Of a stretch of DNA of 64,000 nt, positions 6,191 to 22,477 are shown piece by piece. The translations under genes were made by a program, and so were the position numbers. The stretch is from a virus (taxonomy: Duplodnaviria; Caudoviricetes), in IMG/VR virus record IMGVR_UViG_3300033066_000802, positions 1-64,000 of that record; one strand, 5' to 3'. Under the pieces are notes generated by a model. That model did no database searches and had not been told where the DNA came from. It was given only the letters and a program-made list of their open reading frames with translations. The stretch's first letter is position 1; every line of letters starts with the position of its first letter.

Positions 6191-6219
6191 AAAAAACCCC
6201 CGATTTTAGGTCAGGGGTT
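6191..6219 (-). terminator. Intrinsic terminator (attenuator 1) immediately before tRNA-Lys(CUU)
   Basis: AACCCCTGA-CCTAAAA-TCGGGGGTT-TTTT. Confidence 0.8.
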
Positions 6220-6245
6220 GTAAAGATCTTAGTTATAAGATATCC

Positions 6246-6326
6246 TTAGAAGTCATCAAAATACTCCCCCGTTAACACAAAGTGTTTCACATGTTTACTA
6301 TGTTTGACTATGACTATCTTTTTCAT
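6246..6326 (-). CDS. Putative attenuator leader peptide 1, MKKIVIVKHSKHVKHFVLTGEYFDDF
   Basis: 26 aa ORF between promoter and terminator; 12 of codons 2-17 are Lys/Val/His, the downstream tRNA isotypes. Confidence 0.75.
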   Translation of the reverse strand: MKKIVIVKHSKHVKHFVLTGEYFDDF

Positions 6327-6359
6327 CTTATTATATTTTTATTCGTTTTTTAAAATTAC

Positions 6360-6413
6360 AGGTTGTGCTTGTTTTTCGCTAAAAGAAAGTTTTTAATTTG
6401 CTGAATACAACCT
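6360..6413 (-). ncRNA. Stem + CAGCAA module RNA (stand-alone)
   Basis: AGGTTGT-ATTCAGCAA...TTTC TTTTAGC GAAA...AAGC-ACAACCT. Confidence 0.6.
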
Positions 6414-6428
6414 CATTAATAATTAGTA

Positions 6429-6460
6429 CAAATGTACGCAATGTTTTCGAAATAAACAAA
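6429..6460 (-). promoter_or_regulatory. Bacteroidota-type promoter of the Lys/Val/His tRNA block
   Basis: TTTG-N20-TACATTTG. Confidence 0.78.
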
Positions 6461-6535: not shown

Positions 6536-6609
6536 TGTGACTCCACAAGGAATCGAACCTTGATATGTTCTTTAGAAGAGAACCGCTCTATCCATTGAGC
6601 TATGGAGCC
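6536..6609 (-). tRNA. tRNA-Arg(UCU)
   Basis: GTTCT-CT TCT AA-AGAAC. Confidence 0.88.
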
Positions 6610-6698
6610 AAGTTTTGAAATTCACCAGCCACATCAGAAAAGCTGTCCATTCTGCGTAGTTTAAAGGATACCGTTACAGCCCTAACCTACTGGTTTTA

Positions 6699-6971
6699 TT
6701 ATTTACAAGCTGTTATTTTATTCCAAAGTTTTTTATCAGCTATACTTTTTTTACGACCATACCATCTAATACTACGCATAAAACCCATATTTTCACCTAT
6801 ATAATGAGCGAGGAAACTCTCAATAGATTGAGATTGATCCACACGACCATCCGATTTTCTACGCATAAATAATTTACCATCACAAAACTTATAATCCCAA
6901 TATTTTCGTATTTTTTTTAAAACCTTAATATTCATAACCATTAATTTTTTTACTCGTACTAATAAAATCAT
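6699..6971 (-). CDS. Hypothetical basic protein
   Basis: ORF track; likely start MNIK ~6935. Confidence 0.55.
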   Translation of the reverse strand: MILLVRVKKLMVMNIKVLKKIRKYWDYKFCDGKLFMRRKSDGRVDQSQSIESFLAHYIGENMGFMRSIRWYGRKKSIADKKLWNKITACK

Positions 6972-7236
6972 TTACAAACTTATCCACCACTGATAAATAT
7001 TCCCCATTAATTGAGTACTTCACAAATTTACCATCTTTAATAACTTTTATGATATTTGCCTTACGTAATATTGCAAGATGTTGTGACATTATTGACACTT
7101 CAAGATGCATTATTTTACTCAAATCAGTAATGTTCATATCTTTATTTTTAGATATGTTTTTTAATATCTCTTGCCTGGTTCTATGATTTAGAGAACGTAG
7201 GATCATTGACACCTCTTTTACTGACACATAATTCAT
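6925..7236 (-). CDS. ArsR/SmtB-family HTH transcription regulator
   Basis: LRSLNHRTRQEIL...SQHLAILRKANII...GKFVKYS; start moved to MNYV because 7254 lies inside a tRNA. Confidence 0.85.
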   Translation of the reverse strand: MNYVSVKEVSMILRSLNHRTRQEILKNISKNKDMNITDLSKIMHLEVSIMSQHLAILRKANIIKVIKDGKFVKYSINGEYLSVVDKFVNDFISTSKKINGYEY

Positions 7237-7238
7237 AA

Positions 7239-7313
7239 TGGTACCGATAAACAATTTTGAAATGTCGTCCTCACCCTTATGAGGGGTGCGCTCTGCCTCT
7301 GAGCTATATCGGT
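7239..7313 (-). tRNA. tRNA(CAU), probably Ile2 (lysidine type)
   Basis: CACCC-CT CAT AA-GGGTG (Ile-type anticodon arm); encoded CCA. Confidence 0.78.
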
Positions 7314-7556
7314 ATTAACTGGCATAGCTTTCATCACCAGTGTAGTAGTGCTTGTATAACTACTTTGATCGACTCGTCCCCTTAGCCATCGATCAATGCG
7401 CCATTTCAACCGTTAATTACTCGGCTTACTACAAGAGTTATAGGTAACACCTATCAGTTAAAAAATTGGTACGTTCTCAGATTCCTCTATCTAATCAGTA
7501 CCTGTCCCTAATGTTTGAGGTGAAGGAATTCCTCAAACCTGTCAGAGGGGACTTTC

Positions 7557-7631
7557 GAGCAGGTAATGAGATTCGAACTCACAACTTCCGACTTGGAAGG
7601 ACGGCACTCTAACCAATTGAGCTACACCTGC
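7557..7631 (-). tRNA. tRNA-Gly(UCC)
   Basis: CT TCC AA loop, U73; nt 8-10 (TAG) are the stop codon of the upstream HNH. Confidence 0.88.
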
Positions 7632-8050
7632 ATTGTTTTTTGTTGATAATGTAAATCCCTATGACAGTTAGAACATAATACAACACATTTATTTATTTCA
7701 TCTAATATTCGTTGTTTGTTAGCTGTTTTTACTAAACTTGAAACATCAATATCTTTTTCATTCGGATCAAGATGATGAAAATCTAAAACCCAATGTCTAT
7801 CCTCACCACATTTAGTACAAGACGAATTTTGTTTTATTTCTAAAACCCAATTAATAATATTTTGATTATAAATTTTAGCCTTATCAATATACTTTTGCTT
7901 ATTATTAATATAATGCTCACGTCTATAATTTTTTTGACATACCCGACACAAAGATTGATGATATTTTACTCTTCTATCTGTTCGACTCGCAAAATATTCA
8001 TCAGTCAATGGTATATCTTTTTTACAACCATTACAAAATTTTGTTACCAT
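7622..8050 (-). CDS. HNH homing endonuclease
   Basis: CxxC pairs, LDFHHLDPNEKD, LCSNCHR; start MVTK (8107 start lies in a tRNA). Confidence 0.88.
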   Translation of the reverse strand: MVTKFCNGCKKDIPLTDEYFASRTDRRVKYHQSLCRVCQKNYRREHYINNKQKYIDKAKIYNQNIINWVLEIKQNSSCTKCGEDRHWVLDFHHLDPNEKDIDVSSLVKTANKQRILDEINKCVVLCSNCHRDLHYQQKTMQV

Positions 8051-8060
8051 ATCAAAAAAT

Positions 8061-8133
8061 GAGCGGTAGAGTGGAGTCGAACCACCATTTTTGCCTTGGT
8101 AAGGCAATATAATAGCCTTTATACGACTACCGC
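8061..8133 (-). tRNA. tRNA-Gly(ACC), rare A34 anticodon
   Basis: TTGCC-TT ACC AA-GGCAA; acceptor GCGGTAG/CTACCGC, U73. Confidence 0.82.
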
Positions 8134-8472
8134 AATTGAGGCGATGCTTCGGTACGCCTCGATTCCCTATTCACCCATTTATAGTGACACCAGAAGCTTC
8201 TGTTTGTTCATTCCCTCGCTACTAATCGGTTGCCATACGACCAAGAATTCCAGATCCTGTTGGATCAACTCCTTTCGGAGAACGCCATGAGCAGCGCTAA
8301 TAATTGATTTTCATTTCGTTCAATTACTAAAACACGGTTGACTTTTAATGAGTTCCCCTCTCAATATTTTTAAAGTAGTCCCTGAGCAATAGACTCTGTA
8401 CCAGCGCTGATACCTATTGGGGACTCATGTTACGTTACATCTTATGATGTAAGAGGCTTTACACGCCACACT

Positions 8473-8546
8473 GAGCGGCAGACTGGATTCGAACCAGCGA
8501 CCTGGTACTTGGCAAGCACCTGCTCTACCAACTGAGCTACTACCGC
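8473..8546 (-). tRNA. tRNA-Gly(GCC)
   Basis: GCC anticodon, GCGGTAG/CTGCCGC acceptor, U73. Confidence 0.9.
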
Positions 8547-8823
8547 AAATAAAGTCAGAGGCTTGTGGGAATCCGATAACCTCGGCTGTACACACCTTTC
8601 GCTGATTGCTCAACTACACACGCTTGACTTTAAAGCTTACAAAAAACATCTTATCCCAATGTCATGAGGCTTGCGCCAGGGGAATCCGTTTACCATCCAA
8701 TCGTTTTTAATGAGGGATTGGAACCTCAGCCCAAAATAAAGTTACTAAGGAGAGTGTTCGCTCAAACAGGTAATGAACCTATATTCTCAACACTTAGAGG
8801 TGTTTTGCTACCCTTTTCACTTT

Positions 8824-8948
8824 GTCGCCCAGGATGGACTTGCACCACCGACCCACAGTTCCCATATTAAAATTTTAACTGCGGAACACATTCTCTAACA
8901 GAATGCTCTTTTTTTTTTACTGCTGCTCTGCTACTGAGCTACCAGGCG
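8824..8948 (-). ncRNA. tRNA-like RNA whose anticodon loop is replaced by a ~60 nt insert with hairpin + GTTCCGCA module
   Basis: Acceptor, D and T arms intact; GCAGT/ACTGT stem encloses A10-GAG-CATTCT gttag AGAATG-TGTTCCGCAG. Confidence 0.7.
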
Positions 8949-8962
8949 AATTTTCACTCATC

Positions 8963-9164
8963 GAGATACGATGAATTAGATTTTAACGGCTTTCTTTACT
9001 ATTCAAGAAGCATTCATTTTCATTAGTGTCTTACCACATACAAACCCGTCAAACTATTTGGAAGCTCTGTTACCTGCCCTTGACCCAAACCCCAGTATTT
9101 TAAAGTTACCACCTGGATATTAACTATAACTTTTTAAAGAAGTTACAAACTTGCTGAGTACCTC
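8963..9164 (-). ncRNA. ~200 nt RNA closed by stem + CAGCAA module
   Basis: GAGGTAC-TCAGCAA ... GTATCTC; no ORF. Confidence 0.5.
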
Positions 9165-9173
9165 TTACTCATT

Positions 9174-9194
9174 GCGGGGAGATCAGGATTCGAA
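9174..9194 (-). repeat. Displaced tRNA 3' end; 19 bp direct repeat of 9983-10001
   Basis: GGGGAGATCAGGATTCGAA at 9176-9194 and 9983-10001, flanking the nuclease gene. Confidence 0.85.
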
Positions 9195-9239
9195 AATCGA
9201 ATTTTGATCGAAATTAAACTATTTATTATTATTAATATT

Positions 9240-9926
9240 ATGATGCCACTTTACACTAAATACGAATTTAACTTAGCTAAACCAACAACTAAATTAACCT
9301 GTAAATGTTTATTTTGTAATAAAACTTTTTACTTAACAAAACATCGAATTCAAGCATGTTTAAATATTAATAACAAATCAAATACTGGTGATTTTTGTTC
9401 AATTAAATGCTCCAAATTATCAACAAGTAAAAAAGAAAATGTTAATTGTTTACAATGTAATAATATTTTTCTTAAATCAAAAGCTGAAATTAAAAAATCA
9501 CCTAACCATTTCTGTTCCAAGTCTTGCGCTGCCTCATATAATAACAAACACAAAACCACTGGTACCAGAAGATCCAAACTTGAACTCTACCTGGAAGAAC
9601 AATTAATATTGCTTTATCCAAACATTGAATTTCATTTTAACCGAAAAGACACTATTAATTCAGAACTCGATATCTATATACCATCCCTTAAACTTGCATT
9701 TGAGCTTAACGGTATCTTTCATTATGAACCAATATATGGTACAGATAAACTAAACCAAATACAGAACAATGACATATCCAAATCAAAAGCTTGCTTCGAT
9801 AATCAAATTGATCTTTGCACTATTGATGTGTCTGGTTTAAAATACTTCAAACCAAGCAACGCTCAAAAATACTTAGATATCATTGTAAATATCATAAATC
9901 AAAGAACTTCATTGTTAACCTCTTAG
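9240..9926 (+). CDS. Zn-finger + PD-(D/E)XK/Vsr(DUF559)-like putative homing endonuclease
   Basis: CxxC/FCS..C repeats, SKLE, ELDIYIPSLKLAFELNG.FHY; opposite strand to the tRNAs. Confidence 0.8.
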   Translation: MMPLYTKYEFNLAKPTTKLTCKCLFCNKTFYLTKHRIQACLNINNKSNTGDFCSIKCSKLSTSKKENVNCLQCNNIFLKSKAEIKKSPNHFCSKSCAASYNNKHKTTGTRRSKLELYLEEQLILLYPNIEFHFNRKDTINSELDIYIPSLKLAFELNGIFHYEPIYGTDKLNQIQNNDISKSKACFDNQIDLCTIDVSGLKYFKPSNAQKYLDIIVNIINQRTSLLTS

Positions 9927-9981
9927 CCAGCTTTACCTGTTTCTAACAACAACCACGTAGAGGTGGGTTAACTATGTTATC

Positions 9982-10104
9982 TGGGGAGATCAGGATTCGA
10001 ACCTGAACCTTTTTCTTAACAGGAAATTTTTGAGATAGTGATTTGCCGAACTTATCCACAACTGGATAACTCTTTTTTTAATGCTGCCGTTACACCATCT
10101 CCCC
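9982..10104 (-). tRNA. tRNA-Asn(GUU)-like with ~50 nt insert between D and anticodon arms
   Basis: GGGGAGA/TCTCCCC acceptor; insert A7-GAG-TTATCCA gttg TGGATAA-GTTCGGCAAAT; TTTC-CT GTT AA-GAAA. Confidence 0.72.
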
Positions 10105-10166
10105 GATTGTCTTACAATATTAAGAAATCATTTCGGTAAAACCAAGTGAATTTCAAAACTTTTTTG

Positions 10167-10284
10167 TTGTACACCAAGGAATTGAACCTTGCCCTTTCGA
10201 TTATGATTCGAAGTTTCTGTTGATTGCTGTATTAAACCCCTACGGGTTGTTTGAGATAACGTGCTACCGCTACACCAATGCGCA
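10167..10284 (-). tRNA. tRNA(CAU)-like with ~45 nt insert between D and anticodon arms
   Basis: Insert AACCC gtag GGGTT-TAATACAGCAATC; TTCGA-AT CAT AA-TCGAA; weak acceptor stem. Confidence 0.65.
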
Positions 10285-10378
10285 AGATAAAAAATATGAA
10301 GTAACTCTGTCAATCTAAAGTGTGCCGTTTACGCCAACGCTTGTTGGTTTCCATACTGACCCTTCTACTTCATATTTA

Positions 10379-10417
10379 GAGCCTCTGATAGGACTCGAAC
10401 CTACAACCATCTCCTTA
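10379..10417 (-). pseudogene. 3' half of a split tRNA (probably Thr)
   Basis: TAA-GGAGA-TGGTT-GTAGG TTCGAGT CCTAT-CAGAGGC; acceptor complementary to fragment at 10979-11010. Confidence 0.85.
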
Positions 10418-10427
10418 AAATTCTTTT

Positions 10428-10501
10428 GAGCCGCTAACAGGATTCGAACCTGCACACCCTGATTACAAGTCAGGAGTTCTACCAATTAAAACTATAGCGG
10501 C
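10428..10501 (-). tRNA. tRNA-Thr(UGU)
   Basis: CCTGA-CT TGT AA-TCAGG; nt 8-10 TAG is the HNH stop. Confidence 0.9.
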
Positions 10502-10920
10502 TTATTTAAATTGACCGTCTTTCTCCATTTTCTACCCTTACCTCTACTTTTATAGTAAGGTGTTAATGAATGACAATTAGGGCATAATAATTCCAAATTA
10601 TTTAAGTCATTATTTTCAGGATTACCATCAATATGATTTAATTCAATAGGAATCTTATTAGTAAATTTATTAATTTCGCACCAACCACATTTCATACATT
10701 TATTTCCATGTGTTTTAATTAAAAATCGTTTACCAACCCTTTCAATCGTATCTTTTCTACCCAAATCATCAAATTCACCAGACATAAATTTATCATATCG
10801 TAATTTATTTTGATATTCCGCTTGACACATATTATTACAATATGTATTTCTATTAGCGATTGTCTTTGAGCAATTCAAACACGTTTTTCCAATTTTTCTC
10901 TGTTTCTCATGGTCAACCAT
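10492..10920 (-). CDS. HNH homing endonuclease
   Basis: CMKCG, IELNHIDGNPENNDLNNLELLCPNCHS. Confidence 0.92.
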   Translation of the reverse strand: MVDHEKQRKIGKTCLNCSKTIANRNTYCNNMCQAEYQNKLRYDKFMSGEFDDLGRKDTIERVGKRFLIKTHGNKCMKCGWCEINKFTNKIPIELNHIDGNPENNDLNNLELLCPNCHSLTPYYKSRGKGRKWRKTVNLNKPL

Positions 10921-10978
10921 TTACTATTATAAATAGTGGTCAACCGATGAGAATTCAGATTCTAAGAACTTTTTTTCT

Positions 10979-11010
10979 GAGTTGCTCTACCAGTTAAGAG
11001 CTACAGAGGC
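10979..11010 (-). pseudogene. 5' half of the split tRNA (probably Thr)
   Basis: GCCTCTG-TA-GCTC-TTAACTGGTA-GAGC-A-ACTC. Confidence 0.85.
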
Positions 11011-11130
11011 ATTTCAACTTTTAGATTAACCCCAGAGTTGACAACTGTGCTGGCATACGATCCAGAGGCAAGGTTTCACCGTTCTTATGAGAGGTGTGCC
11101 ACATCTTCGCTCCCTTGCGCTTCGGGCTTT

Positions 11131-11217
11131 TGTAACGGCAGTGAGATTCGAACTCACGTTCTCTTTCGAGTTAGGGGTTATGAGCCCCCGCTGGTACCAT
11201 CTCCAGTCGACACCGCA
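11131..11217 (-). tRNA. Initiator-like tRNA(CAU) with long variable arm
   Basis: GGGGG-CT CAT AA-CCCCT; 1:72 mismatch; variable arm AACTCGAAAGAGAAC. Confidence 0.7.
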
Positions 11218-11304
11218 ATTTATCTTATAAATATACTCATCATTGATAAAGTTGTAAATACTTAGTAAAGTAATTCACTTTATTAATCAAAAATAAGTTT
11301 ATTA

Positions 11305-11381
11305 TGGCGGGAACAGAAAGACTCGAACTTTCAACCCTCTCGCTAACAACGAGCCGCTCTGACATTAGTAGCTATGTTCCC
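11305..11381 (-). tRNA. tRNA-Asn(GUU)
   Basis: TT GTT AG loop, G73, encoded CCA. Confidence 0.82.
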
Positions 11382-11468
11382 AATTTGTAAGGCTACCAAA
11401 TCCTTACGTGGAGGCTATTAGAAGGGTGTTTTCGACCTTGCCTCATTCTCCCCTTACGGTCACAGGTT

Positions 11469-11669
11469 TTAATATTTTAAACTACCACACAATATATCCA
11501 TTTCAACACCATTATCAAATCGTACCGCAACAAAGTCATCAAAACCACCCATACTACCGAATTTTGTATCTGGTACTGTTGTACCCATAACACCCTCAGT
11601 AAGTTGTTCATTATACTTAGTTAAATCCGTAATCAATTGTACTCTTTTTGGTGTACCTCCGTACTGCAT
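11469..11669 (-). CDS. Small hypothetical protein (SH3/KOW-like)
   Basis: 66 aa; RV.L...G..GTT...VAVRFDNG pattern. Confidence 0.55.
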   Translation of the reverse strand: MQYGGTPKRVQLITDLTKYNEQLTEGVMGTTVPDTKFGSMGGFDDFVAVRFDNGVEMDILCGSLKY

Positions 11670-11808
11670 AACAATAATTTAAAGATTAAAAAAATTGCTG
11701 TCTATTCCATGCCGCCAACCGTTTAATCTATTTGAAACGGTAAAAGTCAACTAAAGGTTACTTATCTTATTTTTACAGCATTAAGAACCAAGTTAAGAAT
11801 CAAGCTAT

Positions 11809-11881
11809 GTTGCGAGAGAAGGATTTGCACCCCCGACCTTCGGGTTATGAGCCCGACAAGCTACTACTGCTCTATCTCGCA
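11809..11881 (-). tRNA. tRNA-fMet(CAU)
   Basis: TCGGG-CT CAT AA-CCCGA (three G-C pairs); 5' end overlaps HNH C-terminus. Confidence 0.85.
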
Positions 11882-12439
11882 ATTTAATATTTTCAATATT
11901 CCATTATCGAACTCCCAATGATGATTTGGACATAACGCCATTAAATTATCGATATGGTTAATTTCTTCTATAGTACTATTATCACAAAAATCGGAAACCG
12001 CTTTAATGTGCGCCACTTCGTAGTGATTATGGTACCCACAATAACAACAAATTTTCAATTTATCAGACTCGTTGAAAACGTAGTTAGCATGTTTCCGTAT
12101 ACTCGTCCTGGCTGACTGCCAATTCTTATGTTTACTAAAAATCTCAGATTTGGTTAGTCCTGTTAAAAATTTAAACGGCATTTTAACTTTAACCGTTTTT
12201 GATTGCTCAATCTTTACTTTTTTAGAATTGTTGTATGATGCAGCACAACTACGATTACAAAACTTTCTAACTCTAACCTCTCTGGTTTTTTCGTGAGACC
12301 TTACCTCAATTATTTTTTCGCAATAATGGCATTTATTTGGATTCTGGTAATACCTTGCTAACGCTCGTTCACGTTGTTTTGCGTTACCAATGGCTGCGGC
12401 TTTTTGATGTTTATTCAGTTCCATACATATAAATAGCAT
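11864..12439 (-). CDS. HNH homing endonuclease
   Basis: FCNRSCAA Zn finger, EVAHIKAV...NHIDNLMALCPNHHWEFD; probable start MELN at 12424. Confidence 0.9.
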   Translation of the reverse strand: MLFICMELNKHQKAAAIGNAKQRERALARYYQNPNKCHYCEKIIEVRSHEKTREVRVRKFCNRSCAASYNNSKKVKIEQSKTVKVKMPFKFLTGLTKSEIFSKHKNWQSARTSIRKHANYVFNESDKLKICCYCGYHNHYEVAHIKAVSDFCDNSTIEEINHIDNLMALCPNHHWEFDNGILKILNCEIEQ

Positions 12440-12460
12440 AGAACTTTCGAAAATACCATC

Positions 12461-12484
12461 CGCTACACACTGCTCTACCCCGCT
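12461..12484 (-). pseudogene. Orphan 5' fragment of tRNA-fMet
   Basis: AGCGGGG-TA-GAGCAGTGTGTAGCG; can pair with the acceptor 3' strand at ~11811-11817 with a 1:72 mismatch. Confidence 0.78.
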
Positions 12485-12489
12485 ATATT

Positions 12490-12693
12490 TTAATTTATAT
12501 AAGCAACATTATCTTTTACTTCAACAGATGATGCATACCCCCTCATAACCAAATGAGGTTGTGTTTTACTCCATTTAGTTTCACACGGAACACCACATTT
12601 AATGTCCTGGGCAATTAAACATTGATTTCTGAAATGCACTGTCATTGCTTTATTAATTTTGTTGAAATGATAAAAAAACCTATATTTTTTCAT
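12490..12693 (-). CDS. Small hypothetical phage protein
   Basis: MKKYRFFYHFNK...CETKWSKTQPHLVMRG; 12762 start lies in a tRNA-like RNA. Confidence 0.65.
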   Translation of the reverse strand: MKKYRFFYHFNKINKAMTVHFRNQCLIAQDIKCGVPCETKWSKTQPHLVMRGYASSVEVKDNVAYIN

Positions 12694-12707
12694 TTGTTTA
12701 TTTTTAA

Positions 12708-12827
12708 TAGATGTGTACTGGATTCGAACCAATGTCTGAGGTGGCTTTACGCTATCGACCAAGATAAAAGGGATTTGAACCCTATCGCTACCTGACTCCC
12801 CAATTTTACCGTTAAACTAACACAACA
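12708..12827 (-). ncRNA. tRNA-like RNA with anticodon loop replaced by an insert containing a second T-arm
   Basis: GTTGTGT/ACACATC acceptor, D arm, ATTGG TTCGAAT CCAGT T arm; insert has AGGG TTCAAAT CCCT. Confidence 0.6.
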
Positions 12828-12829
12828 TG

Positions 12830-13012
12830 TTATGTCTTTGATGCTTCAATTGATATATCATTAAATACTGCTGATGTTGAGTTGTAACGTTCATGTGTTT
12901 CAATCGAAACGTTTACTTTAATTTCACCAGTTCCTTTGAAACCTATTGATTCCAAATGTTTTTTAATGATAGCATCGAGATCTTTCTTATCGAATTTAAT
13001 TGTTGTGGTCAT
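12830..13012 (-). CDS. Small hypothetical protein
   Basis: 60 aa ORF after promoter at 13029-13060. Confidence 0.6.
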   Translation of the reverse strand: MTTTIKFDKKDLDAIIKKHLESIGFKGTGEIKVNVSIETHERYNSTSAVFNDISIEASKT

Positions 13013-13028
13013 AAAATATTCCTTTCAG

Positions 13029-13060
13029 CAAAGTTACGAAAAGAATTTGAATTCACCAAA
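13029..13060 (-). promoter_or_regulatory. Bacteroidota-type promoter internal to the tRNA array
   Basis: TTTG-N20-TAACTTTG. Confidence 0.65.
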
Positions 13061-13081
13061 CAAAACCCAATATTTCTTTAA

Positions 13082-13158
13082 AGCGGATGTGACGGGACTC
13101 GAACCCGCACCACGCACCGTGACCAGGTGGCATTGTTATCCAATTCAACCACACATCC
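13082..13158 (-). tRNA. tRNA-Asp(GUC), atypical G33
   Basis: CACC-TG GTC AC-GGTG; G73. Confidence 0.8.
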
Positions 13159-13162
13159 ATTA

Positions 13163-13318
13163 GTGGCGACAATGGGAGTCGAACTCATAATCTCTGGGTT
13201 ATGCCCCCAGCGTGGTCATCCTCTCCGTTTAGTTACTTCTACCTTGTGTAATATTCCACTCAGCTTATTCATCTAAACATCCTTTTATCGAGGATTTTCC
13301 AAATTTCACTCTATCGCA
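13163..13318 (-). tRNA. Initiator-like tRNA(CAU) with ~80 nt insert in the D-loop
   Basis: TGCGATA/TGTCGCC acceptor (1:72 mismatch), GTG/CAC D stem, CTGGG-GG CAT AA-CCCAG. Confidence 0.65.
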
Positions 13319-13332
13319 TGATAAGTGTTTAT

Positions 13333-13770
13333 TTACTTTGTTAATTCTCGCATTTTATCGATACAACTATTAATCGAAAATCTTAAAAGAAGATCTGTTA
13401 ATATTTCAACAGTACCAATACCACCATAAGATTCAACCAGATTATTTCGCCATTTCCCACTTTTTTCATCTACACGATATAAATACCCATGTCCTTTATG
13501 AAAGGTAAATACAAAATCGGCTGATGCTGGTCTATCGTCATTATATGAACTCCTGATATCCAAGTGATAATTCAATTTTTCAAACAACGCCCAAATTTTT
13601 TCATTAGCAATATCACCTTCATTAGAATCCCTATTACCAGACATATCAAACCTTAAGTGTTCTGGTTGTTCATCTGGTAGATATTCTTTAGACAAATCTT
13701 GTCCGAGTGTCTTTCTAACAAAAGCCTCTACGATAGCTTTCATTTCTTCTGTAATACTTGTTAATAACAT
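13333..13770 (-). CDS. Hypothetical protein
   Basis: 145 aa ORF between tRNAs. Confidence 0.7.
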   Translation of the reverse strand: MLLTSITEEMKAIVEAFVRKTLGQDLSKEYLPDEQPEHLRFDMSGNRDSNEGDIANEKIWALFEKLNYHLDIRSSYNDDRPASADFVFTFHKGHGYLYRVDEKSGKWRNNLVESYGGIGTVEILTDLLLRFSINSCIDKMRELTK

Positions 13771-13786
13771 ATATTTTTTTTAATTA

Positions 13787-13861
13787 AGCGGGAAACAAGG
13801 GGGTCGAACCCTCAATCTCTACCGTGACAGGGTAGCATGTTACCATCAACACCTCGTTCCC
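13787..13861 (-). tRNA. tRNA-Asp(GUC)
   Basis: CTACC-CT GTC AC-GGTAG. Confidence 0.88.
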
Positions 13862-13869
13862 AATATTTT

Positions 13870-13945
13870 TGTAGCCACGACCAGATTCGAACTGGTATTT
13901 TAGGTTTAGGAAACCCACGTTCTGTCCAGTTGAACTACACAGCCA
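13870..13945 (-). tRNA. tRNA-Arg(CCU)
   Basis: TGGGT-TT CCT AA-ACCTA. Confidence 0.85.
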
Positions 13946-14150
13946 TTTTTTTGCCGCCATACCTATTTTTTAATATTTTAGTTGGTAACCCTGATTGGTG
14001 ATCATCAATGAATATAACCAATGATTCATGTTTTACTATTTGATAAGCTTCACCAGGGAAATCATTCAAACTAATTTCTTCAAACGGTTTATTCCTATCG
14101 TAACCAGGAAGATCTTCTCTAAAATAAACTAAACAAGTTGTTTTTAACAT
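13935..14150 (-). CDS. Small hypothetical protein
   Basis: 71 aa; stop codon is nt 8-10 of tRNA-Arg(CCU). Confidence 0.6.
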   Translation of the reverse strand: MLKTTCLVYFREDLPGYDRNKPFEEISLNDFPGEAYQIVKHESLVIFIDDHQSGLPTKILKNRYGGKKMAV

Positions 14151-14163
14151 AATTTAAAATTTT

Positions 14164-14239
14164 TGCGGAATAGAAGGGACTCGAACCCTCGACCTTCGCA
14201 GTGACAGTGCGATATTGTAACCAGCTCTACTACTACTCC
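14164..14239 (-). tRNA. tRNA-Asp(GUC)
   Basis: TCGCA-CT GTC AC-TGCGA. Confidence 0.88.
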
Positions 14240-14333
14240 GTTTTAAAAAATCTTTCAGACTCACTTTTTTGCTCCTTCTATGCGGAAACACATATGGATG
14301 AAGTGGTTGTCGTATAACATATTTTTTAGGGTC

Positions 14334-14536
14334 GAGATTCCAACCTCGTTTAACCAACCCACATTTATGCCACTGGACACGCAATGTATTCGTTTCGGTT
14401 TCCCGACTTTACCTACCACACAGTGACTCAGGTTTTTAAACCAAAAATATGTGATAACACTGCTCGTAACTTTCCCTTTCGGGTGCCAGACTACCTTAGA
14501 ACCGTTAGTTTGCAAATTGATGCTGTACTGAATCTC
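14334..14536 (-). ncRNA. ~200 nt RNA closed by stem + CAGCA module
   Basis: GAGATTC-AGTACAGCATC ... GAATCTC; internal GAAA-loop hairpins (CCC GAAA GGG). Confidence 0.55.
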
Positions 14537-14548
14537 ATAAAGATTTTT

Positions 14549-14622
14549 TGCTCTTGTGGAGAATTTCGAAATCTCGACTTAACGCTTAACAGGCGTTTAC
14601 TCTACCTCTGAGTTACACAAGA
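14549..14622 (-). tRNA. tRNA-Asn(GUU)
   Basis: AACGC-CT GTT AA-GCGTT; G73. Confidence 0.88.
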
Positions 14623-14626
14623 ATTT

Positions 14627-14776
14627 TTAAAGTTCACCCAAAGCTTGTTTGATAATTTTCTTATCTAACATCCTTCTTTTAGATGATGTTAATTTTTTAC
14701 TGAATGCTTTGACGTGTTTTGCCCATTCGCCATTCAGGATGGAGTTGATTTTACTCCCTGGTCTAATTTTTCCCAT
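14627..14776 (-). CDS. Small basic protein (49 aa) MGKIRPGSKINSILNGEWAKHVKAFSKK...
   Basis: Below ORF-track cutoff; clean ATG-TAA between RNA genes. Confidence 0.55.
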   Translation of the reverse strand: MGKIRPGSKINSILNGEWAKHVKAFSKKLTSSKRRMLDKKIIKQALGEL

Positions 14777-14973
14777 AGTTAATTAATGAAATTTGATTCA
14801 TTGGACAATGGTGCGTCACTATTATTACCCTCATAACGTCTTGCGCCACCTGAGATTTGCACTCGGAATCTGGGCTTGTCATGCCTCAGCGGGTTAACTT
14901 TTCTAATAGATCGTTCTGCAAACATGGTATAGTTCATGTAGACTTTTCGTTGTTAAAAATTATTTTTCAATTA

Positions 14974-15051
14974 TGTGTGCCTTTCTGGAGTCGAACCAGA
15001 CACCTAATGATTATGAGTCATTCGCTCTCACCTACCATGAGCTAAAGGCAC
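14974..15051 (-). tRNA. tRNA(CAU), probably Ile2
   Basis: AATGA-CT CAT AA-TCATT; paired 1:72. Confidence 0.8.
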
Positions 15052-15284
15052 AAGGATAATGTAGGTTGACTACCCGTTTCGGTCAACTATTGAGTGCTTC
15101 TTCAGTTTTACGAGCGCTCGGCACAGGGTTCTATTTTCTTTTAACCCACCTTGGTTGTCGACACCGACAGTGGAGAAAATCTACATTAAAAACTTTAATT
15201 TTTCGCCCCCTTTCCGTAGTAGTCCAACGGTCATGTGTTAGCCTCACACACTTCATCACTAAATGATAAGAGGCGAAAAATTGT

Positions 15285-15359
15285 TGTGGTAATGATCGGT
15301 TTCGAGCCGATTCCTCAAGATTTTCAGTCTTGCGCTTCTACCAAGTTAGCTTCATCACC
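15285..15359 (-). tRNA. tRNA-Phe(GAA)
   Basis: CAAGA-CT GAA AA-TCTTG. Confidence 0.88.
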
Positions 15360-15406
15360 TGTTTGAGAGTTCCATACATCCAGGAAGTATACTCACAACC
15401 GACCTA

Positions 15407-15482
15407 TGGTGGTAACGGATGGAATTGCGCCACCGACACGCTGCTGTTCAGGCAGCTGCTCTACTAACTGAGCTACATCACC
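15407..15482 (-). tRNA. tRNA-Phe(GAA), atypical C37
   Basis: GCTGC-CT GAA CA-GCAGC; encoded CCA. Confidence 0.82.
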
Positions 15483-15719
15483 AATTTATACTGTAGTCCC
15501 ATGATTAAAGACCTTTGGGTATTAGTATGCGGAACGGTCATGCGCCATACTACAGTATCATCTTCATTTCAGACTATTGAACGATGAACTCAATAATCTA
15601 TAAATACCGTAACGTTCTTTTACTGCTACTTGGATATTATTTTTCACAGACTCATCGTAGGTCAAGCCTACGAACAAAGGGAATTCTTATTGCTAAGTTG
15701 TCTTTGTAGTAATCTTTTA

Positions 15720-15751
15720 CAAAAGTAAGTCTTTATTTTTATTCTACCAAA
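15720..15751 (-). promoter_or_regulatory. Bacteroidota-type promoter (internal)
   Basis: TTTG-N20-TACTTTTG. Confidence 0.65.
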
Positions 15752-15768
15752 TATTTGGTGATATATTT

Positions 15769-15963
15769 TTATTTGTATGTAACACCTCTTTTTTTCTCAT
15801 CGTTCAAGAACTTAATTTCCTCAACAAGGTGATTGAATTCATCTTTACTTATAGAATTCTTTTCAACTTTTGTAAGTTTCGAATAATCGAAGTTAATGTC
15901 TGTCCAAGACGATTCCAGTAATTTTAATACTGAGTGCCATACACCTATGTTTACTTTTCTCAT
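15769..15963 (-). CDS. Small hypothetical protein
   Basis: 64 aa; own promoter-like motif at 15968-15999. Confidence 0.6.
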   Translation of the reverse strand: MRKVNIGVWHSVLKLLESSWTDINFDYSKLTKVEKNSISKDEFNHLVEEIKFLNDEKKRGVTYK

Positions 15964-16072
15964 TTTACAAAGGTAAACATAATTTCATTAATCACCAAAT
16001 ATCTGATAGATTTTTTTTCTTTTATCCCAATATGTCAAAGATCTTTAACTATAAAACCTATGTCTTATAATC

Positions 16073-16150
16073 TGTGGGACTACGAAGGGGTTTGAACCCT
16101 CGACCACCAGAACCACAATCTGGCGCTCTACCAACTGAGCTACGTAGTCC
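16073..16150 (-). tRNA. tRNA-His(GUG)
   Basis: CCAGA-TT GTG GT-TCTGG; G-1:C73; CCA. Confidence 0.92.
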
Positions 16151-16164
16151 ATTTTTAATCTCAT

Positions 16165-16192
16165 AAAAAAACCCCAGCTTGTGACTGAGGTT
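16165..16192 (-). terminator. Intrinsic terminator (attenuator 2) immediately before tRNA-His
   Basis: AACCTCAG-TCACAAG-CTGGGGTT-TTTTT. Confidence 0.8.
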
Positions 16193-16216
16193 CCTTCGTA
16201 ATCTGCTTTTTCTTCT

Positions 16217-16300
16217 TTATGAAAGCACATGAGGAACCCTGGTCGGGTGATCATTCACTCTACCAAACGTAAATCCTATATTTATCATATGCTTTTTCAT
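16217..16300 (-). CDS. Putative attenuator leader peptide 2, MKKHMINIGFTFGRVNDHPTRVPHVLS
   Basis: 27 aa ORF between promoter and terminator; codons match the 9 downstream tRNA isotypes. Confidence 0.78.
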   Translation of the reverse strand: MKKHMINIGFTFGRVNDHPTRVPHVLS

Positions 16301-16340
16301 CGAAGATGTTTAAAATTTTACTTGTTATTAATAATTAGTA

Positions 16341-16371
16341 CAAAAGTACGAAAAGTTTTCGAAAAAACAAA
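16341..16371 (-). promoter_or_regulatory. Bacteroidota-type promoter heading the main tRNA block
   Basis: TTTG-N19-TACTTTTG. Confidence 0.78.
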
Positions 16372-16407
16372 TCTTTTTTCAAATATTTTTTATTTTAATT
16401 TGTTTTA

Positions 16408-16860
16408 TTAACTTTTTACTATTTTGTCAGCAGCATAAGTTGCAGCCCAAGCATTTGGTTTACCAGCAGCTTGATATCCTTTTGATATCGCATAACCAAT
16501 ACCCGAATCATACAATTCATTTGATCTTTCGGAAATCTTTGAGTTGTAATCGCAGTGAATTGTTATTGGTATACCAAGATCTTTTATTTCATCAGCAACC
16601 TGTACAGCTTTTTCAACTTCTGCCCAAAGCCTCATATTATTTGTTGGTTTTATGGCTTCAGTTGAACGTCTGTCGATTATATGACCACCCTTACCTTGTT
16701 CATAAAGACAAACACTTACACCATAATCAATTTTTCTGTCATGTTGTTGCGAATCACATCCAATGAATATTTGGATATTTGGTTTATTCTTTACCCACAA
16801 TTTAACATATTCTTTAAGGTCAGGTATTACAACACCCTGCCTTGTTCTGAACTTAGCCAT
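16408..16860 (-). CDS. YkuK-like (DUF458) RNase H-fold protein
   Basis: IFIGCDSQ, GKGGH, RLWAEV, IHCDYN, KP.AWAA...AD. Confidence 0.8.
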   Translation of the reverse strand: MAKFRTRQGVVIPDLKEYVKLWVKNKPNIQIFIGCDSQQHDRKIDYGVSVCLYEQGKGGHIIDRRSTEAIKPTNNMRLWAEVEKAVQVADEIKDLGIPITIHCDYNSKISERSNELYDSGIGYAISKGYQAAGKPNAWAATYAADKIVKS

Positions 16861-16982
16861 AATTTATCATTTTTTACAAAGATAAGTAATGTTTTTGAAA
16901 AAACAAAATTTTTAATGATTTAACTCATCATACTTATTCAACTCAGCAATTAACTGAGATACTGTTAAATATTTTCGTTTAC

Positions 16983-18578
16983 TCATATATCAAACGTTGT
17001 AAAACCTAACTGATTATTTTTATCTTTAATAAAAGATATGTGTTGTGCCCTACCATCATTATGTATTATCACATGTGATTGTAACCATGTACTGGCACCA
17101 ACATTATAACCAATACTCATTTTGGTTGATGTACCGACAGCTAAAGCACCATCTTTTCTTCCTGGTGTATGATAGTGACCCACTACAATTTTAGTATTCA
17201 AAGTTCTGAATTGGTTCAATGTACCCCTCGAACCATTTGAACCCTGGTCACCATGTTGACCAAGCTCCCAATTTTTCACCTTATAGGATTGATCCCTACC
17301 AAGTGTTATGAAATTTGGATACCTCTCATTTATTAATTGTGGTATTATACCACGAATATTATCTGGAGTTTTCTCGTATTGCTCCATAAGCATCTGAGCA
17401 AACTGCATATATAATTTAGAATTTTTAGTTGTTGGTTGTTTCTTCCAATCCTCAGTTCTTAACCACCTATCCAAAAAATCATCATGATTACTTCTAACAA
17501 TAACAACATTATCGAAGTTACTGAATTTATCCAAACCATTCATAAGGTCATCAATTTCTCTCTGTAATGAGTTTTGATTATGTATTTCTTTTGAATATTG
17601 AACGAAAGGATCTTTTAATTCATGGTGGTTTATCGACATACCATCAAACACATCATGTAGTATAACGTGACCTGGCTTGATTTTACCCATTAAGTTAATT
17701 GTTTGGTTCACGACACCCTCTTCATGATTACCAAAATGTAAATCACCAAGTACAATAGCCGCCATACTATTTATCTTATTTACTTTAGTATCTTCAACTC
17801 TATAACAAAGATCTGTGAATGAACCTGTCTTATCATCAGCTGTTACTTGTCTAACATAAAAAATATCCTTATCTTTAATTTCGACAATAACAAAACCATA
17901 TGTGTGATGGAATTCACCTTTCTTACCAGCTTTAGAATCGGTATAGTTTGGAACTGATATAGCACCAGTGGTTAACATCATTTTTGGTTTATTACCTTTT
18001 AATACGGGTATCATCTCCAATTGTACCTTTGGCGCACCAAATACACATGAATTCACACCACTAACACCCTGCAACCCACTCATAGGATTGGTGGCTGTTG
18101 GTTGTATCTTAATGTCTGACATGATTGATACGTATTTATGTATATCATGTCTGTTTGCATCCAAATATGGTAAAACTGCGTTATCCCAATAATCATATTC
18201 ATTATCAGTAAATACTGATGTTGGGTTTTTATACCTACCAGCAATAACATGAATATCAGCATCAATATGTTCTGCGTAAGCTTTCATATTATTCAATAAT
18301 TTTGTATGTATTGCCGTATTATTTTGCGCCCACGTAATTAGAAAGCGTGATTTAGATTTATCATGCTCTTTTAGTTTTGCTGTTTCATATTGCTCAGATT
18401 CAATTTCAATCTTTTCCTTAAATCCTAATTTTTCGGAACACCATTTCCTAACAGTTCTTTCAGATCTATCAAAAAGATCCATAAGTAATTTCATCCTTTC
18501 ATCCCAAGATAATTCTTTATCTGTGTAAATTTGTCTTGCACTTTCTATTTGTGCGGCTGTTAATTCTTTAAATTTCAT
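16983..18578 (-). CDS. T5 A1-like metallophosphoesterase/nuclease with N-terminal HTH
   Basis: ITWAQNNT, GDLHFG, HDVFDG, SNHD, GQHGD.G.NGSRG, GHYH motifs. Confidence 0.7.
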   Translation of the reverse strand: MKFKELTAAQIESARQIYTDKELSWDERMKLLMDLFDRSERTVRKWCSEKLGFKEKIEIESEQYETAKLKEHDKSKSRFLITWAQNNTAIHTKLLNNMKAYAEHIDADIHVIAGRYKNPTSVFTDNEYDYWDNAVLPYLDANRHDIHKYVSIMSDIKIQPTATNPMSGLQGVSGVNSCVFGAPKVQLEMIPVLKGNKPKMMLTTGAISVPNYTDSKAGKKGEFHHTYGFVIVEIKDKDIFYVRQVTADDKTGSFTDLCYRVEDTKVNKINSMAAIVLGDLHFGNHEEGVVNQTINLMGKIKPGHVILHDVFDGMSINHHELKDPFVQYSKEIHNQNSLQREIDDLMNGLDKFSNFDNVVIVRSNHDDFLDRWLRTEDWKKQPTTKNSKLYMQFAQMLMEQYEKTPDNIRGIIPQLINERYPNFITLGRDQSYKVKNWELGQHGDQGSNGSRGTLNQFRTLNTKIVVGHYHTPGRKDGALAVGTSTKMSIGYNVGASTWLQSHVIIHNDGRAQHISFIKDKNNQLGFTTFDI

Positions 18579-18584: not shown

Positions 18585-19505
18585 TTAATTGTGTTTACCT
18601 CTTTCTTTAGGATATGGTAGATCAACCAATTTAGGGTTTAAAGATCTAAATTTTTCTCGTAATACGAGTGTTTCTTTTTTATTAGCTCCTTGTATATAAA
18701 GATATTTATGTTTTTTACTTAATTTTCTCTTCTCACAAGATAACATATAATCTTTGCTTAATGTTCTAACCCTATCCTCAATATCTTTTGGCATATTACC
18801 CCAAAGAATATTATCACCATCTTGCCATGTTTTATTCCAAATAATACCATCATCTACAGCCAATCTTTTATAGACACTACGACTTCTAAAATATCTATCA
18901 GATACCCATTTTCCAGATGGTATTTTATATTGACAAGCCGCACCAGATGATTGACCTAAATAGATAAAATTACACGCTTGGTATATCGTACCCAATTCTT
19001 TAGCTTCGGGGTCAGAATAGGCTGTAAACACCCTATAATCTGTATTTTTAACCATCCACTTGATAGAATACATTATCAATGATGATCCGAGGTTTTTAGG
19101 TGACCAAGAAATACAAGCCCCACGTGAAATCAATCTCTCAATCTTTCGTGTTTTTTCCCCCAATAATTTTGAAAATGAATTAGGCATATCCATTATTATC
19201 ACACCTGCCAAGATATCTTTATATTTAGCTATAAAGAAGTGTGTAGGGTAATTACTTATTGTACCTAACCATTCATGTCTTTTAATAAATTGCTTTATTC
19301 GTCCAACCATTTCCTTATCGGATTTTGGTACAAACTCAAATGTGAAATCGGTAACTTTTAAATTATCAACAATTTCCTGAGTTAAGTTAGATTGAATAAT
19401 ATCCTCAATTCTATTATCTTCACGGATTTGAAACTGCCAGCAATGATCTTTATCGTAATTTTTAAATCTATCCGTAATATCCAATACTTCCTTACCCATA
19501 TTCAT
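18585..19505 (-). CDS. Mom-like (GNAT-fold) DNA modification protein
   Basis: FIKRHEWLG, ISR...PKN..S.LI, YSDP....GTIYQACNF.Y.G. Confidence 0.72.
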   Translation of the reverse strand: MNMGKEVLDITDRFKNYDKDHCWQFQIREDNRIEDIIQSNLTQEIVDNLKVTDFTFEFVPKSDKEMVGRIKQFIKRHEWLGTISNYPTHFFIAKYKDILAGVIIMDMPNSFSKLLGEKTRKIERLISRGACISWSPKNLGSSLIMYSIKWMVKNTDYRVFTAYSDPEAKELGTIYQACNFIYLGQSSGAACQYKIPSGKWVSDRYFRSRSVYKRLAVDDGIIWNKTWQDGDNILWGNMPKDIEDRVRTLSKDYMLSCEKRKLSKKHKYLYIQGANKKETLVLREKFRSLNPKLVDLPYPKERGKHN

Positions 19506-20749: not shown

Positions 20750-22477
20750 CTAAAAATATGCCACAGCGCACTTTTGTGGTTTACTCTCAGCTTGTGTGAT
20801 TAATTGTTGAACTACATCTTCAGGTATATTTGTACCAACAAAATTACAAGCAACCAAATCTTCTAATTTTGTAAGATATTCTGGAACTTTTTTCAAATTC
20901 TTGTTAAAATGTACGTCAATCATATATAGATCCTTTAAAGACATTAAATAATCAGGTATTTCTTTAATATCACAATTTGATGCCGTAATTCTATATAATT
21001 TATTAATATTACCGATTGTTGGTAATGATTTTAATTTATTATTATCATCCAAAATCAAATGTTCCAAATTAACAAGTCCAGATATATCAAAATTATTTAA
21101 TATATTACAATTACTTAAATCTAACTCAATTAGTGATGTTAATTCGTTTATATAGTCAGGAACGACTGTTAATTTGTCATTATCACATATCTGTAAATGT
21201 CTTAATTTTTTTAATTTAGTGAATGACTCAGGAATATTATCAATATCACAACCAATTAAGATAAGTTTTTTTAAAGATACAATATCGCCAATTTCATTCA
21301 AAGCTTTGGGTGATAATTTAAAATCATCCAATTCAATACTTTCTGGCTGAACTCTTTTTAAGACAGAAATTAATTCATCACCGTAACCTAATGTCTTTAA
21401 AAAATTTATAACTTGCTCTGGTTTACCTGTTTGGAGTAATTTAAAAGCCGCCGCATCAACGTATTTACTAAAAAAACTTTTAACTTTTGGGTAATTTTTA
21501 AGAAACAAATTTATTTTTATAGGTGTATCTCTGGCATCCATATATTGACTCGATTCGAAATGAAACTGAAGTCTAACATTTGGTTTATTCCGTATATGAT
21601 ATACTGAACCGTAACCCTTTTTAATTAAAACTAAAAGAGGTCCTTGATCATGATAGCTACTAAACATGCTCATGTACCTGGTTCCAGCTGTACACCAAGA
21701 AGTATTCTTACCAAAAATAGCATTAGCCTCTTTATTATGCGTTTGTACAATTACCCATGTATCATCCTCATAAACCAATTCCGCTATAGGTTCCTCCGTT
21801 TCACTAAAAACTTTATCAGTTTTAACTGGAGCATTAACAAAATTTTGTATACACTTAATCTCGCTATGCGTTAATGTATGTACCTGCTCACTATCATCAT
21901 CACCTAACGCAGCATACGGTTTAATCGTATTAATGAATTCATTATATGTTTTATATTGATTTATATCTCTTTGTTGGTTAGACAACACTGATGTCTTTTT
22001 TAGAAAAATAAACACCTCAATAGCTTCCGCTATCTTTCCGAGATCCTCAAAAAATAAATTCTCAGCTGACACAGTTTTTTCACTAAACTGCTCATTTGTC
22101 TTATTTTGTTTTGTTATTTGTGGTCTATTACGGCACAGATCACCATATAGATTAATATACCACTGCATATACTCCTTATTTGGCGATGGGTCAAATTTAA
22201 GGAAATAGTTAAATAATGCGTCTTTGAATGTGTTACCAAGCGACTTAATATTGATACCCATGCGATTTACGAAACTCAGAAACGATACATCCACATAATT
22301 CTCTGGAATATCTTCAGTAAAAAGATTCTTTGTTTTCGATGCATCACCAATAATTAACATTACATCGGAATTCTCTCGATGATTAATTAATTTATCTTTT
22401 TTGATAGATTTCTCGTATTGTTTTGTAAACTGGTCGTAAACGAAACTTAACCGACTACTCAACTTATTATCGCTCAT
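20750..22477 (-). CDS. Phage protein with C-terminal leucine-rich repeats
   Basis: LxxLxxLxLxxC/N repeats in last ~200 aa; central G..T.WCT motif. Confidence 0.78.
   Translation of the reverse strand: MSDNKLSSRLSFVYDQFTKQYEKSIKKDKLINHRENSDVMLIIGDASKTKNLFTEDIPENYVDVSFLSFVNRMGINIKSLGNTFKDALFNYFLKFDPSPNKEYMQWYINLYGDLCRNRPQITKQNKTNEQFSEKTVSAENLFFEDLGKIAEAIEVFIFLKKTSVLSNQQRDINQYKTYNEFINTIKPYAALGDDDSEQVHTLTHSEIKCIQNFVNAPVKTDKVFSETEEPIAELVYEDDTWVIVQTHNKEANAIFGKNTSWCTAGTRYMSMFSSYHDQGPLLVLIKKGYGSVYHIRNKPNVRLQFHFESSQYMDARDTPIKINLFLKNYPKVKSFFSKYVDAAAFKLLQTGKPEQVINFLKTLGYGDELISVLKRVQPESIELDDFKLSPKALNEIGDIVSLKKLILIGCDIDNIPESFTKLKKLRHLQICDNDKLTVVPDYINELTSLIELDLSNCNILNNFDISGLVNLEHLILDDNNKLKSLPTIGNINKLYRITASNCDIKEIPDYLMSLKDLYMIDVHFNKNLKKVPEYLTKLEDLVACNFVGTNIPEDVVQQLITQAESKPQKCAVAYF

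Follow-up and report, generated by a model that had tools for sequence, protein, structure and literature searches.

The DNA considered here is the first 64 kilobases (kb; 'the window') of the IMG/VR virus record IMGVR_UViG_3300033066_000802, a sequence of 154,611 base pairs (bp) that is estimated to be about half complete and belongs to a large phage whose hosts are of the Bacteroidota type. Between positions 4860 and 16149 the window carries an array of transfer RNA (tRNA) genes, all on the minus strand, of which 21 were found by ARAGORN and three more by Rfam. A promoter, a short open reading frame (ORF) and a terminator stand ahead of the first of these genes, tRNA-His, and an earlier interpretation made from the letters alone (the sequence-only reading) had taken this unit for a leader-peptide attenuator whose codons mirror the downstream tRNAs and which senses their depletion. 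The window module and the tRNA genes behind it (block A) are laid out as follows (nt, nucleotides):

16341 to 16371, minus strand: promoter of the Bacteroidota type (TTTG, 19-nt spacer, TAnnTTTG), from a motif scan
16301 to 16334, minus strand: short, A/T-rich 5' leader ahead of the start codon
16217 to 16300, minus strand: leader ORF, ATG, 27 codons and TAA; codons 2-17 are the predicted stall-permissive segment and codons 18-27 the tail
16285 to 16301, minus strand: region 1, the start codon and first codons; predicted to pair with region 2 when no ribosome is present (anti-antiterminator)
16222 to 16239, minus strand: region 2, the last ORF codons (GGUUCCU, 4-nt spacer, UGCUUU); 5' strand of the predicted antiterminator
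16189 to 16209, minus strand: region 3 (AAAGCA, spacer, AGGAACC); 3' strand of the predicted antiterminator, its last bases being the first of the terminator 5' arm
16165 to 16192, minus strand: predicted intrinsic terminator (hairpin 16192-16170), with a 9-pair stem, a 5-nt loop and seven U
16076 to 16149, minus strand: tRNA-His(GUG), beginning 21 nt past the terminator, with an encoded G-1 opposite C73 (a bacterial signature)
6537 to 15482, minus strand: remainder of tRNA block A (two Phe, three CAU, two Asn, three Asp, Arg CCU and UCU, Thr, and Gly GCC, ACC and UCC)

The promoter, the ORF, the terminator and tRNA-His were all found as the sequence-only reading had described them. The promoter motif (TTTG-spacer-TAnnTTTG) occurs 17 times in the window against 5.6 expected, a count matched by none of 100 shuffles. 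A Shine-Dalgarno motif is present at the starts of just 5 of the 101 genes of this phage; because start contexts here generally lack one, the A/T-rich region upstream of the leader ORF is ordinary for this genome. The terminator stem (16192-16170) folds at about -11 kcal/mol. It was not listed by a simple consensus terminator scan, though a sister terminator at 6219-6195 was; a hairpin-plus-T-run scan of the first 20 kb, which include the whole array, found clear stem-plus-T-run terminators only after two leader ORFs, this one and the one described below. Between the terminator and the next promoter-like motif, tRNA-His is the sole gene.

Homologous leaders occur at the same position in nine related phage contigs, all of them ORFs of 21-27 codons that run from an ATG to a stop and are followed by a terminator:

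L025, 8345 to 8428
L007, 12399 to 12473
L010, 3037 to 3111
L006, 2890 to 2967
L106, 8139 to 8216
L036, 10055 to 10132
L034, 8487 to 8552
L038, 8130 to 8195
L012, 7667 to 7744

The ATG-to-stop frame is retained in all ten homologs, the window's included, despite many substitutions. These relatives were found through a 531-residue protein encoded two genes upstream of the leader, which gave about 100 loci. The downstream tRNA array is kept in the closer relatives (at least ~70% identity); most of those below ~70% had no tRNAs within 6 kb. With the upstream ribonuclease H (RNase H)-like protein as query, three loci at 30% identity were returned, none with tRNAs, and a distant DNA search of the GenBank phage collection with positions 15700-17000 gave tRNA look-alikes only.

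The leader RNA has a minimum free energy of -45.3 kcal/mol (z = -4.2 against shuffles) in a fold that pairs the first codons with the last ones and leaves the terminator intact. The sequence-only reading had also proposed an antiterminator, and this pairing exists: GGUUCCU can pair with AGGAACC and UGCUUU with AAAGCA, and AGGAACC runs into the terminator 5' arm. The duplex is predicted at -15.8 kcal/mol, compared with -9.0 +/- 2.6 for shuffles, and at -17 to -31 kcal/mol in the homologs. In an alignment of the ten homologous leaders (alignment A5), 91% of the cells of the antiterminator helix were paired and 4 of its 9 pairs had changed on both sides (15 cells). None of 500 shuffles reached this covariation score, and pairing dropped to 64% when partners were slid by one column. 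The terminator helix was paired in 88% of cells, and 4 of its pairs had changed on both sides. Five columns are common to the two helices, which therefore cannot coexist; two mutually exclusive, covarying predicted helices are the signature of a regulated terminator, whatever sets it. The window leader and that of L025 have the classical 1:2, 2:3, 3:4 layout, the region 1:2 helix being predicted in L025 as well, with two positions differing on both sides (by hand comparison of the two sequences). Rfam searches of the leader gave no match beyond tRNAs at the gathering score, and only chance-level matches at E up to 10.

The window holds a second unit of this kind. The array had been taken to end at 6536, but it continues to 4860 in a further block (block D), which has a promoter-leader-terminator unit of its own at 6460-6189:

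6189 to 6460, minus strand: second module, with promoter (6460-6429), a 5' leader longer than that of the first module and containing a hairpin element, ORF and terminator
6246 to 6326, minus strand: leader ORF of 26 codons, rich in Lys, Val and His
6195 to 6219, minus strand: predicted terminator
4860 to 6186, minus strand: tRNA block D (Lys CUU, Lys UUU, a third Lys-UUU-like, Val UAC and two His GUG)

The tRNA-Lys(CUU) gene starts 9 nt past the terminator. The two promoters are near-identical from about -45 to +15: at 6460-6415, and nowhere else in the genome, the promoter of the window module and its first transcribed bases are repeated with hardly a change. The exact promoter-leader pattern had no match in IMG/VR, and in the window's own genome it picked out the two modules only. 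Lys, Val and His make up 12 of the 25 residues of the second ORF, against 0.151 in the proteome background (P = 1.1e-4), the background here and below being taken from the amino-acid composition of the 101 long ORFs in this genome.

As for the first leader, rereading the sequence bore out what had been said of its codons. Codons 4-17 contain all nine of His, Met, Ile, Asn, Gly, Phe, Thr, Arg and Asp, and 16 of codons 4-21 belong to the tRNA set. Both Ile codons are ATA, the Arg codons AGA and AGG correspond to tRNA anticodons UCU and CCU, and the Gly codons GGA and GGT correspond to anticodons UCC, ACC and GCC. Of 558 random short ORFs taken from this genome, 0.36% had a matching fraction as high as that of this leader. 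Strong support for a match beyond chance comes from the second module and from the relatives, and not from the window ORF alone.

One relative, the complete 320,934-bp genome G001, has three further tRNA blocks, each headed by its own unit of promoter, short ORF and terminator:

Leu/Arg/Gln-rich leader: ahead of tRNAs for Arg, Leu (two) and Gln (two)
Lys/Ile/Val/His-rich leader: ahead of tRNAs for Lys (two), Ile, Val, His and again Ile
Ser/Trp/Tyr/Glu/Pro-rich leader: ahead of tRNAs for Tyr, Pro (two), Ser, Trp, again Ser, and Glu

Two more leader units ahead of other block types were found in L012 and L070. That leaders mirror their own tRNA block, as first suggested from the window, is now carried by permutation, frame and homolog evidence. 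All 15 leaders were enriched for the isotypes of their own block (P from 0.05 down to 3e-5). The matrix of leader-by-block scores was block-diagonal, with foreign block types scoring near zero, and with one leader per block type the true assignment was the best of 120 permutations (13.1 vs 9.6 for the next best). Under simple wobble rules, 177/341 codons (52%) matched in frame, compared with 71/328 and 62/328 in the other two frames (~20%); the match is frame-specific, which means that the signal is a triplet one counted from the ATG. In 13/13 units each isotype of the block had at least one leader codon, with the exception of Met beyond the initiator, which was missing in three; in the nine homologs of the window module the block isotype was represented in the leader in 64/64 cases. 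The sequence-only reading had implied that leaders and tRNAs should covary between related phages, and the variable isotypes do follow the cargo: His codons are confined to the two leaders with tRNA-His after the terminator (the window and L025), and Glu codons occur in exactly the five leaders whose blocks carry tRNA-Glu, the loci being related and the counts thus not independent.

The effect of ribosome position was modelled on nascent RNA, with the terminator 3' arm absent and the ribosome covering the RNA to 12 nt past its A site. In this model, placing the A site at any of codons 2-17 sequestered the terminator 5' arm (probability 0.5-0.8), whereas positions from codon 18 through the stop left it free (0.2-0.4), and other units showed the same step from sequestered to free near where their matched codons end. 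Matched codons are concentrated in the permissive segment: 13/16 compared with 4/10 in the tail for the window leader, and 11/14 compared with 1/11 for the second module. Pooling twelve units gave 128/169 inside the segment and 49/134 outside (P = 4.6e-12, homologs counted separately); for the window's two modules and two leaders of other block types from relatives, the values were 39/54 and 19/59 (P = 1.9e-5). The automatic threshold for the segment misplaces the boundary for block B of G001, and the geometry of block E of G001 differs. Region 2 of the window leader ends 7 nt before the end of the ORF; in the analysed block-A homologs the stop lies 0-14 nt past region 2, so that a terminating ribosome would cover it.

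Three further motifs within block A resemble promoters. They had been raised as a caveat at 15968, 15720 and 13029, and a motif scan confirmed their presence:

15999 to 15968, minus strand: predicted promoter-like motif
15751 to 15720, minus strand: predicted promoter-like motif
13060 to 13029, minus strand: predicted promoter-like motif

The first proposal had the leader gating the whole downstream tRNA inventory. This part is not supported: a consensus promoter motif is present between the terminator and tRNA-Phe in 5/5 mapped loci (the window and four homologs), and with such a promoter active the leader could not be the sole gate. Strictly behind the predicted attenuator in the window there is tRNA-His only; for the rest of block A, read-through can only add to the output of the internal predicted promoters, by an amount that we infer rather than observe. 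Leaders nevertheless track tRNAs that lie kilobases downstream (e.g. Glu and Pro in L034), which argues that read-through matters.

From the parts of the unit, their conservation, the correspondence of codons to tRNAs and the covariation of both helices, we propose, with a probability of roughly 70%, that the window unit is a ribosome-mediated leader-peptide transcription attenuator ahead of phage tRNA genes, which would act as a feedback sensor of decoding capacity. Transcription would start at the 16371-16341 promoter and a ribosome would, we infer, translate the 27-codon ORF. A ribosome that reached the stop would cover region 2, the terminator at 16192-16165 would form and transcription would end before tRNA-His. 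Where a ribosome lingered in codons 2-17, almost all of which are read by tRNAs of the block behind, region 2 would be left free to pair with the terminator 5'-arm sequence, and the polymerase would continue into the tRNA genes. As the leader would be decoded by the phage tRNAs themselves, the circuit would feed back negatively on decoding capacity, and since a single leader samples several codon types, shortage of any one of them could open it. Both the terminator/antiterminator switch coupled to a leader ORF and this design, in which a stall at any of several codon types favours read-through, had been put forward in the sequence-only reading and draw support from the comparative and structural evidence.

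Several observations weigh against the attenuator. The promoter upstream of tRNA-Phe would provide a second route to most of block A, and in some relatives entire protein-coding genes intervene as well, G001 having two (of 335 and 64 codons) between its leader and tRNA-Phe. The match of the window leader taken alone is moderate (17/26 residues in the set vs a background of 0.43, binomial P = 0.018), and it has two Pro codons with no tRNA-Pro on the contig. Equilibrium folding of the full-length leader preferred the terminator under every ribosome mask, and the switch must therefore be kinetic, as in classical attenuators; of the fold with masked segments that the sequence-only reading had called for, a position-dependent antiterminator thus appeared in the nascent-RNA model, whilst in the full-length equilibrium fold the terminator won throughout. 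An anti-antiterminator is clear only in the window and L025, and several relatives form the antiterminator without a ribosome. In block E of G001, region 2 lies ~45 nt before the stop, outside the cover of a terminating ribosome. Finally, coupling of transcription and translation in the host is an assumption.

What the proposed feedback would serve can be framed in two ways. Supply-and-demand feedback on phage tRNA output explains the same facts as counter-defence and is simpler; counter-defence is a possible special case of it, and no result of our analysis bears on anticodon nucleases. In the more far-reaching version, each tRNA block would be a plug-in unit with its own multi-codon sensor, rewritten as tRNAs are gained or lost, which detects the loss of host tRNAs (through shut-off, decay or anticodon-loop nucleases) and switches on the exact replacement set as an inducible counter-measure. 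We regard this as unlikely when taken as a whole.

A different account makes the unit a self-contained small gene, for a micropeptide or a small RNA, with the tRNAs made from later promoters and the codon match serving as, for instance, a translational probe or decoy. It would accommodate the consensus promoter after the terminator in the five mapped loci and the two G001 genes in front of tRNA-Phe, and the peptide does have a short conserved core among homologs. However, a plain terminator needs no conserved, covarying competitor helix overlapping its 5' arm. In the window and L025 a tRNA follows 21-24 nt past the terminator with no promoter between, and in blocks B, D and E of G001 the tRNAs begin only 10-14 nt past it. 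In addition, the leaders of L006 and L007 differ by about three synonymous and nine non-synonymous changes (hand count), and most of the amino acids exchanged remain in the tRNA set, as selection for composition, and not for peptide sequence, would produce. On balance the small-gene account is improbable.

The switch could also be real and yet be set by something other than a ribosome: pairing of a tRNA anticodon with the leader (as in a T-box), an RNA-binding protein of the phage or the host, or an antitermination factor with timed action. Covariation supports the helices and is silent on what chooses between them, the antiterminators that several relatives form without any ribosome would suit such a trigger, and both a conserved hairpin element and conserved first transcribed bases accompany the promoters. 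Set against this are the restriction of codon matches to one frame (52% vs ~20%), the ATG-to-stop frame kept in all ten homologs, the placing of the stop 0-14 nt from region 2 in the analysed block-A homologs, the position of the matched codons in a segment set by the ribosome footprint, and the lack of a match to the T-box or any other Rfam family; we consider a trigger of this sort quite improbable. That the ORF is a chance one in an untranslated leader, with the terminator merely insulating the array from the upstream RNase H-like gene, is hardly credible: short ORFs are common in A/T-rich DNA and the window ORF by itself matches with just P = 0.018, but the unit has its own promoter downstream of that gene, the ORF is kept in ten homologs, and leader-to-block specificity, frame specificity and positional enrichment all hold.

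The ribosome-mediated attenuator has clear relations among known systems. In enterobacteria the thrL leader senses Thr and Ile, and the ilvGMEDA and ilvBN leaders sense Leu, Val and Ile. The phage unit resembles these multivalent leaders in its promoter, short ORF and alternative antiterminator and terminator helices, in having several codon types in one leader so that any shortage would favour read-through, and in a stop placed so that a terminating ribosome would block the antiterminator. It differs in being phage-borne, in sampling as many as eight or nine isotypes, most of them by one or two codons and not by runs of one codon, and in regulating tRNAs instead of biosynthetic enzymes; slow decoding would therefore be answered with more decoder, not more amino acid. 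It shows no sequence similarity to the leader families in Rfam. In Escherichia coli the pheM leader precedes pheST, the operon for phenylalanyl-tRNA synthetase, and there too an attenuator controls a component of the translation apparatus by the decoding speed of its own codons; pheM, however, samples a single amino acid, has a protein-coding target and belongs to a cellular genome. The E. coli tRNA-Phe gene pheV was considered as a precedent and discarded, as no leader-peptide ORF is present ahead of it in the MG1655 sequence.

The T-box riboswitch likewise chooses between terminator and antiterminator in a 5' leader, according to the state of a specific tRNA. It differs in binding uncharged tRNA directly, through a specifier codon and the T-box sequence, without translation, and we rejected a T-box identity for the phage leader: Rfam gave no such match, either at the gathering score or with E raised to 10, and the codon signal here lies in the frame of an ORF. 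The Bacteroid-trp motif of Rfam is a predicted leader-peptide attenuator of Bacteroidota, which serves an amino-acid operon and whose codons are for Trp alone. Its existence suggests that ribosome-mediated attenuation is available to hosts in this phylum; the motif itself had no match in the Rfam searches of the leader.

By analogy, then, the proposed mechanism belongs to a known class, in which the multivalent thr and ilv leaders come nearest to it and pheM-pheST is the case from the translation apparatus. To our knowledge, the established cases of leader-peptide attenuation concern the supply of amino acids and a single aminoacyl-tRNA synthetase operon (pheST), and none concerns tRNA genes. 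The sequence-only reading knew of no description for phage tRNA operons, and our search of full-text literature found none of leader-peptide control of tRNA genes in phages or in cells. What is new to us is the tRNA-gene target, the breadth of codons sampled and the phage setting.

Several other features accompany these modules. Beyond the promoter, the first ~15 transcribed bases (GTACTAATTATTAA-like) are common to both modules and to relatives (16320-16334 and 6415-6428, minus strand; L025, 8300-8320). Many of these promoters have a hairpin element after them whose loop carries a CAGCAA-like motif. The window copy is at 6360-6413 (minus strand), and others are at 13905-13985 in L007, at 3068-3125 and 3443-3525 in L006, and at ~3722-3830 and 14128-14200 in L008 (reverse complement). 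In module 2, as in blocks B and E of G001, the element sits in the 5' leader and precedes the ORF; in block A it stands alone, between the internal promoter and tRNA-Phe; it may be a 5' stabiliser, a processing signal or an element acting on the polymerase. A 64-codon gene with its own promoter always lies between the terminator of the block A leader and tRNA-Phe (15769-15963, minus strand; L007, 13661-13855; L006, ~3199-3393), and it is conserved with no Pfam family match. A motif with TTGACATATTGG just past a tRNA is kept in the window (16027-16040, minus strand) and at 8660 in L025, 14271 in L007, 8982 in L034 and 8946 in L106; it looks like the -35 box of another promoter class, or a processing site.

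The arrays themselves also hold unusual genes. Three tRNA-like genes were missed by ARAGORN at its default settings (5784-5862, 4947-5017 and 12709-12826, minus strand): one has a Lys-UUU anticodon loop and an enlarged D region, one is His-GUG-like with acceptor-stem mismatches, and one has a 45-nt insert in the anticodon arm. Block A contains interspersed HNH and other small ORFs as well as the promoter-like motifs; two ORFs matching HNH endonuclease and zinc-finger families (10492-10920 and 11864-12439, minus strand) overlap the starts of tRNA genes, which suggests homing-type insertions. In block C of G001 (L008 reverse complement, 7667-7939) a tRNA with anticodon CUA (amber suppressor) lies beside tRNA-Cys and behind an ORF of well over 60 codons, far longer than the short leaders; given the CUA tRNA, recoding of TAG in this phage is a possibility. 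Upstream of the array in the window are genes for a Mom-family protein (DNA modification; 18585-19505, minus strand) and a leucine-rich-repeat protein (20750-22477, minus strand).

If the proposed attenuator is correct, attenuation logic closes a loop on decoding capacity itself, the speed at which codons are read setting the transcription of the tRNAs that read them. This would explain how large phages hold big tRNA arrays without expressing them constantly, and would show when phage tRNAs are needed in infection, including whether they answer depletion or cleavage of host tRNAs. Since each leader lists its cargo, leaders are also an aid in annotating odd or degenerate phage tRNAs, and as compact natural multi-codon sensors they could be engineered as reporters of tRNA availability.

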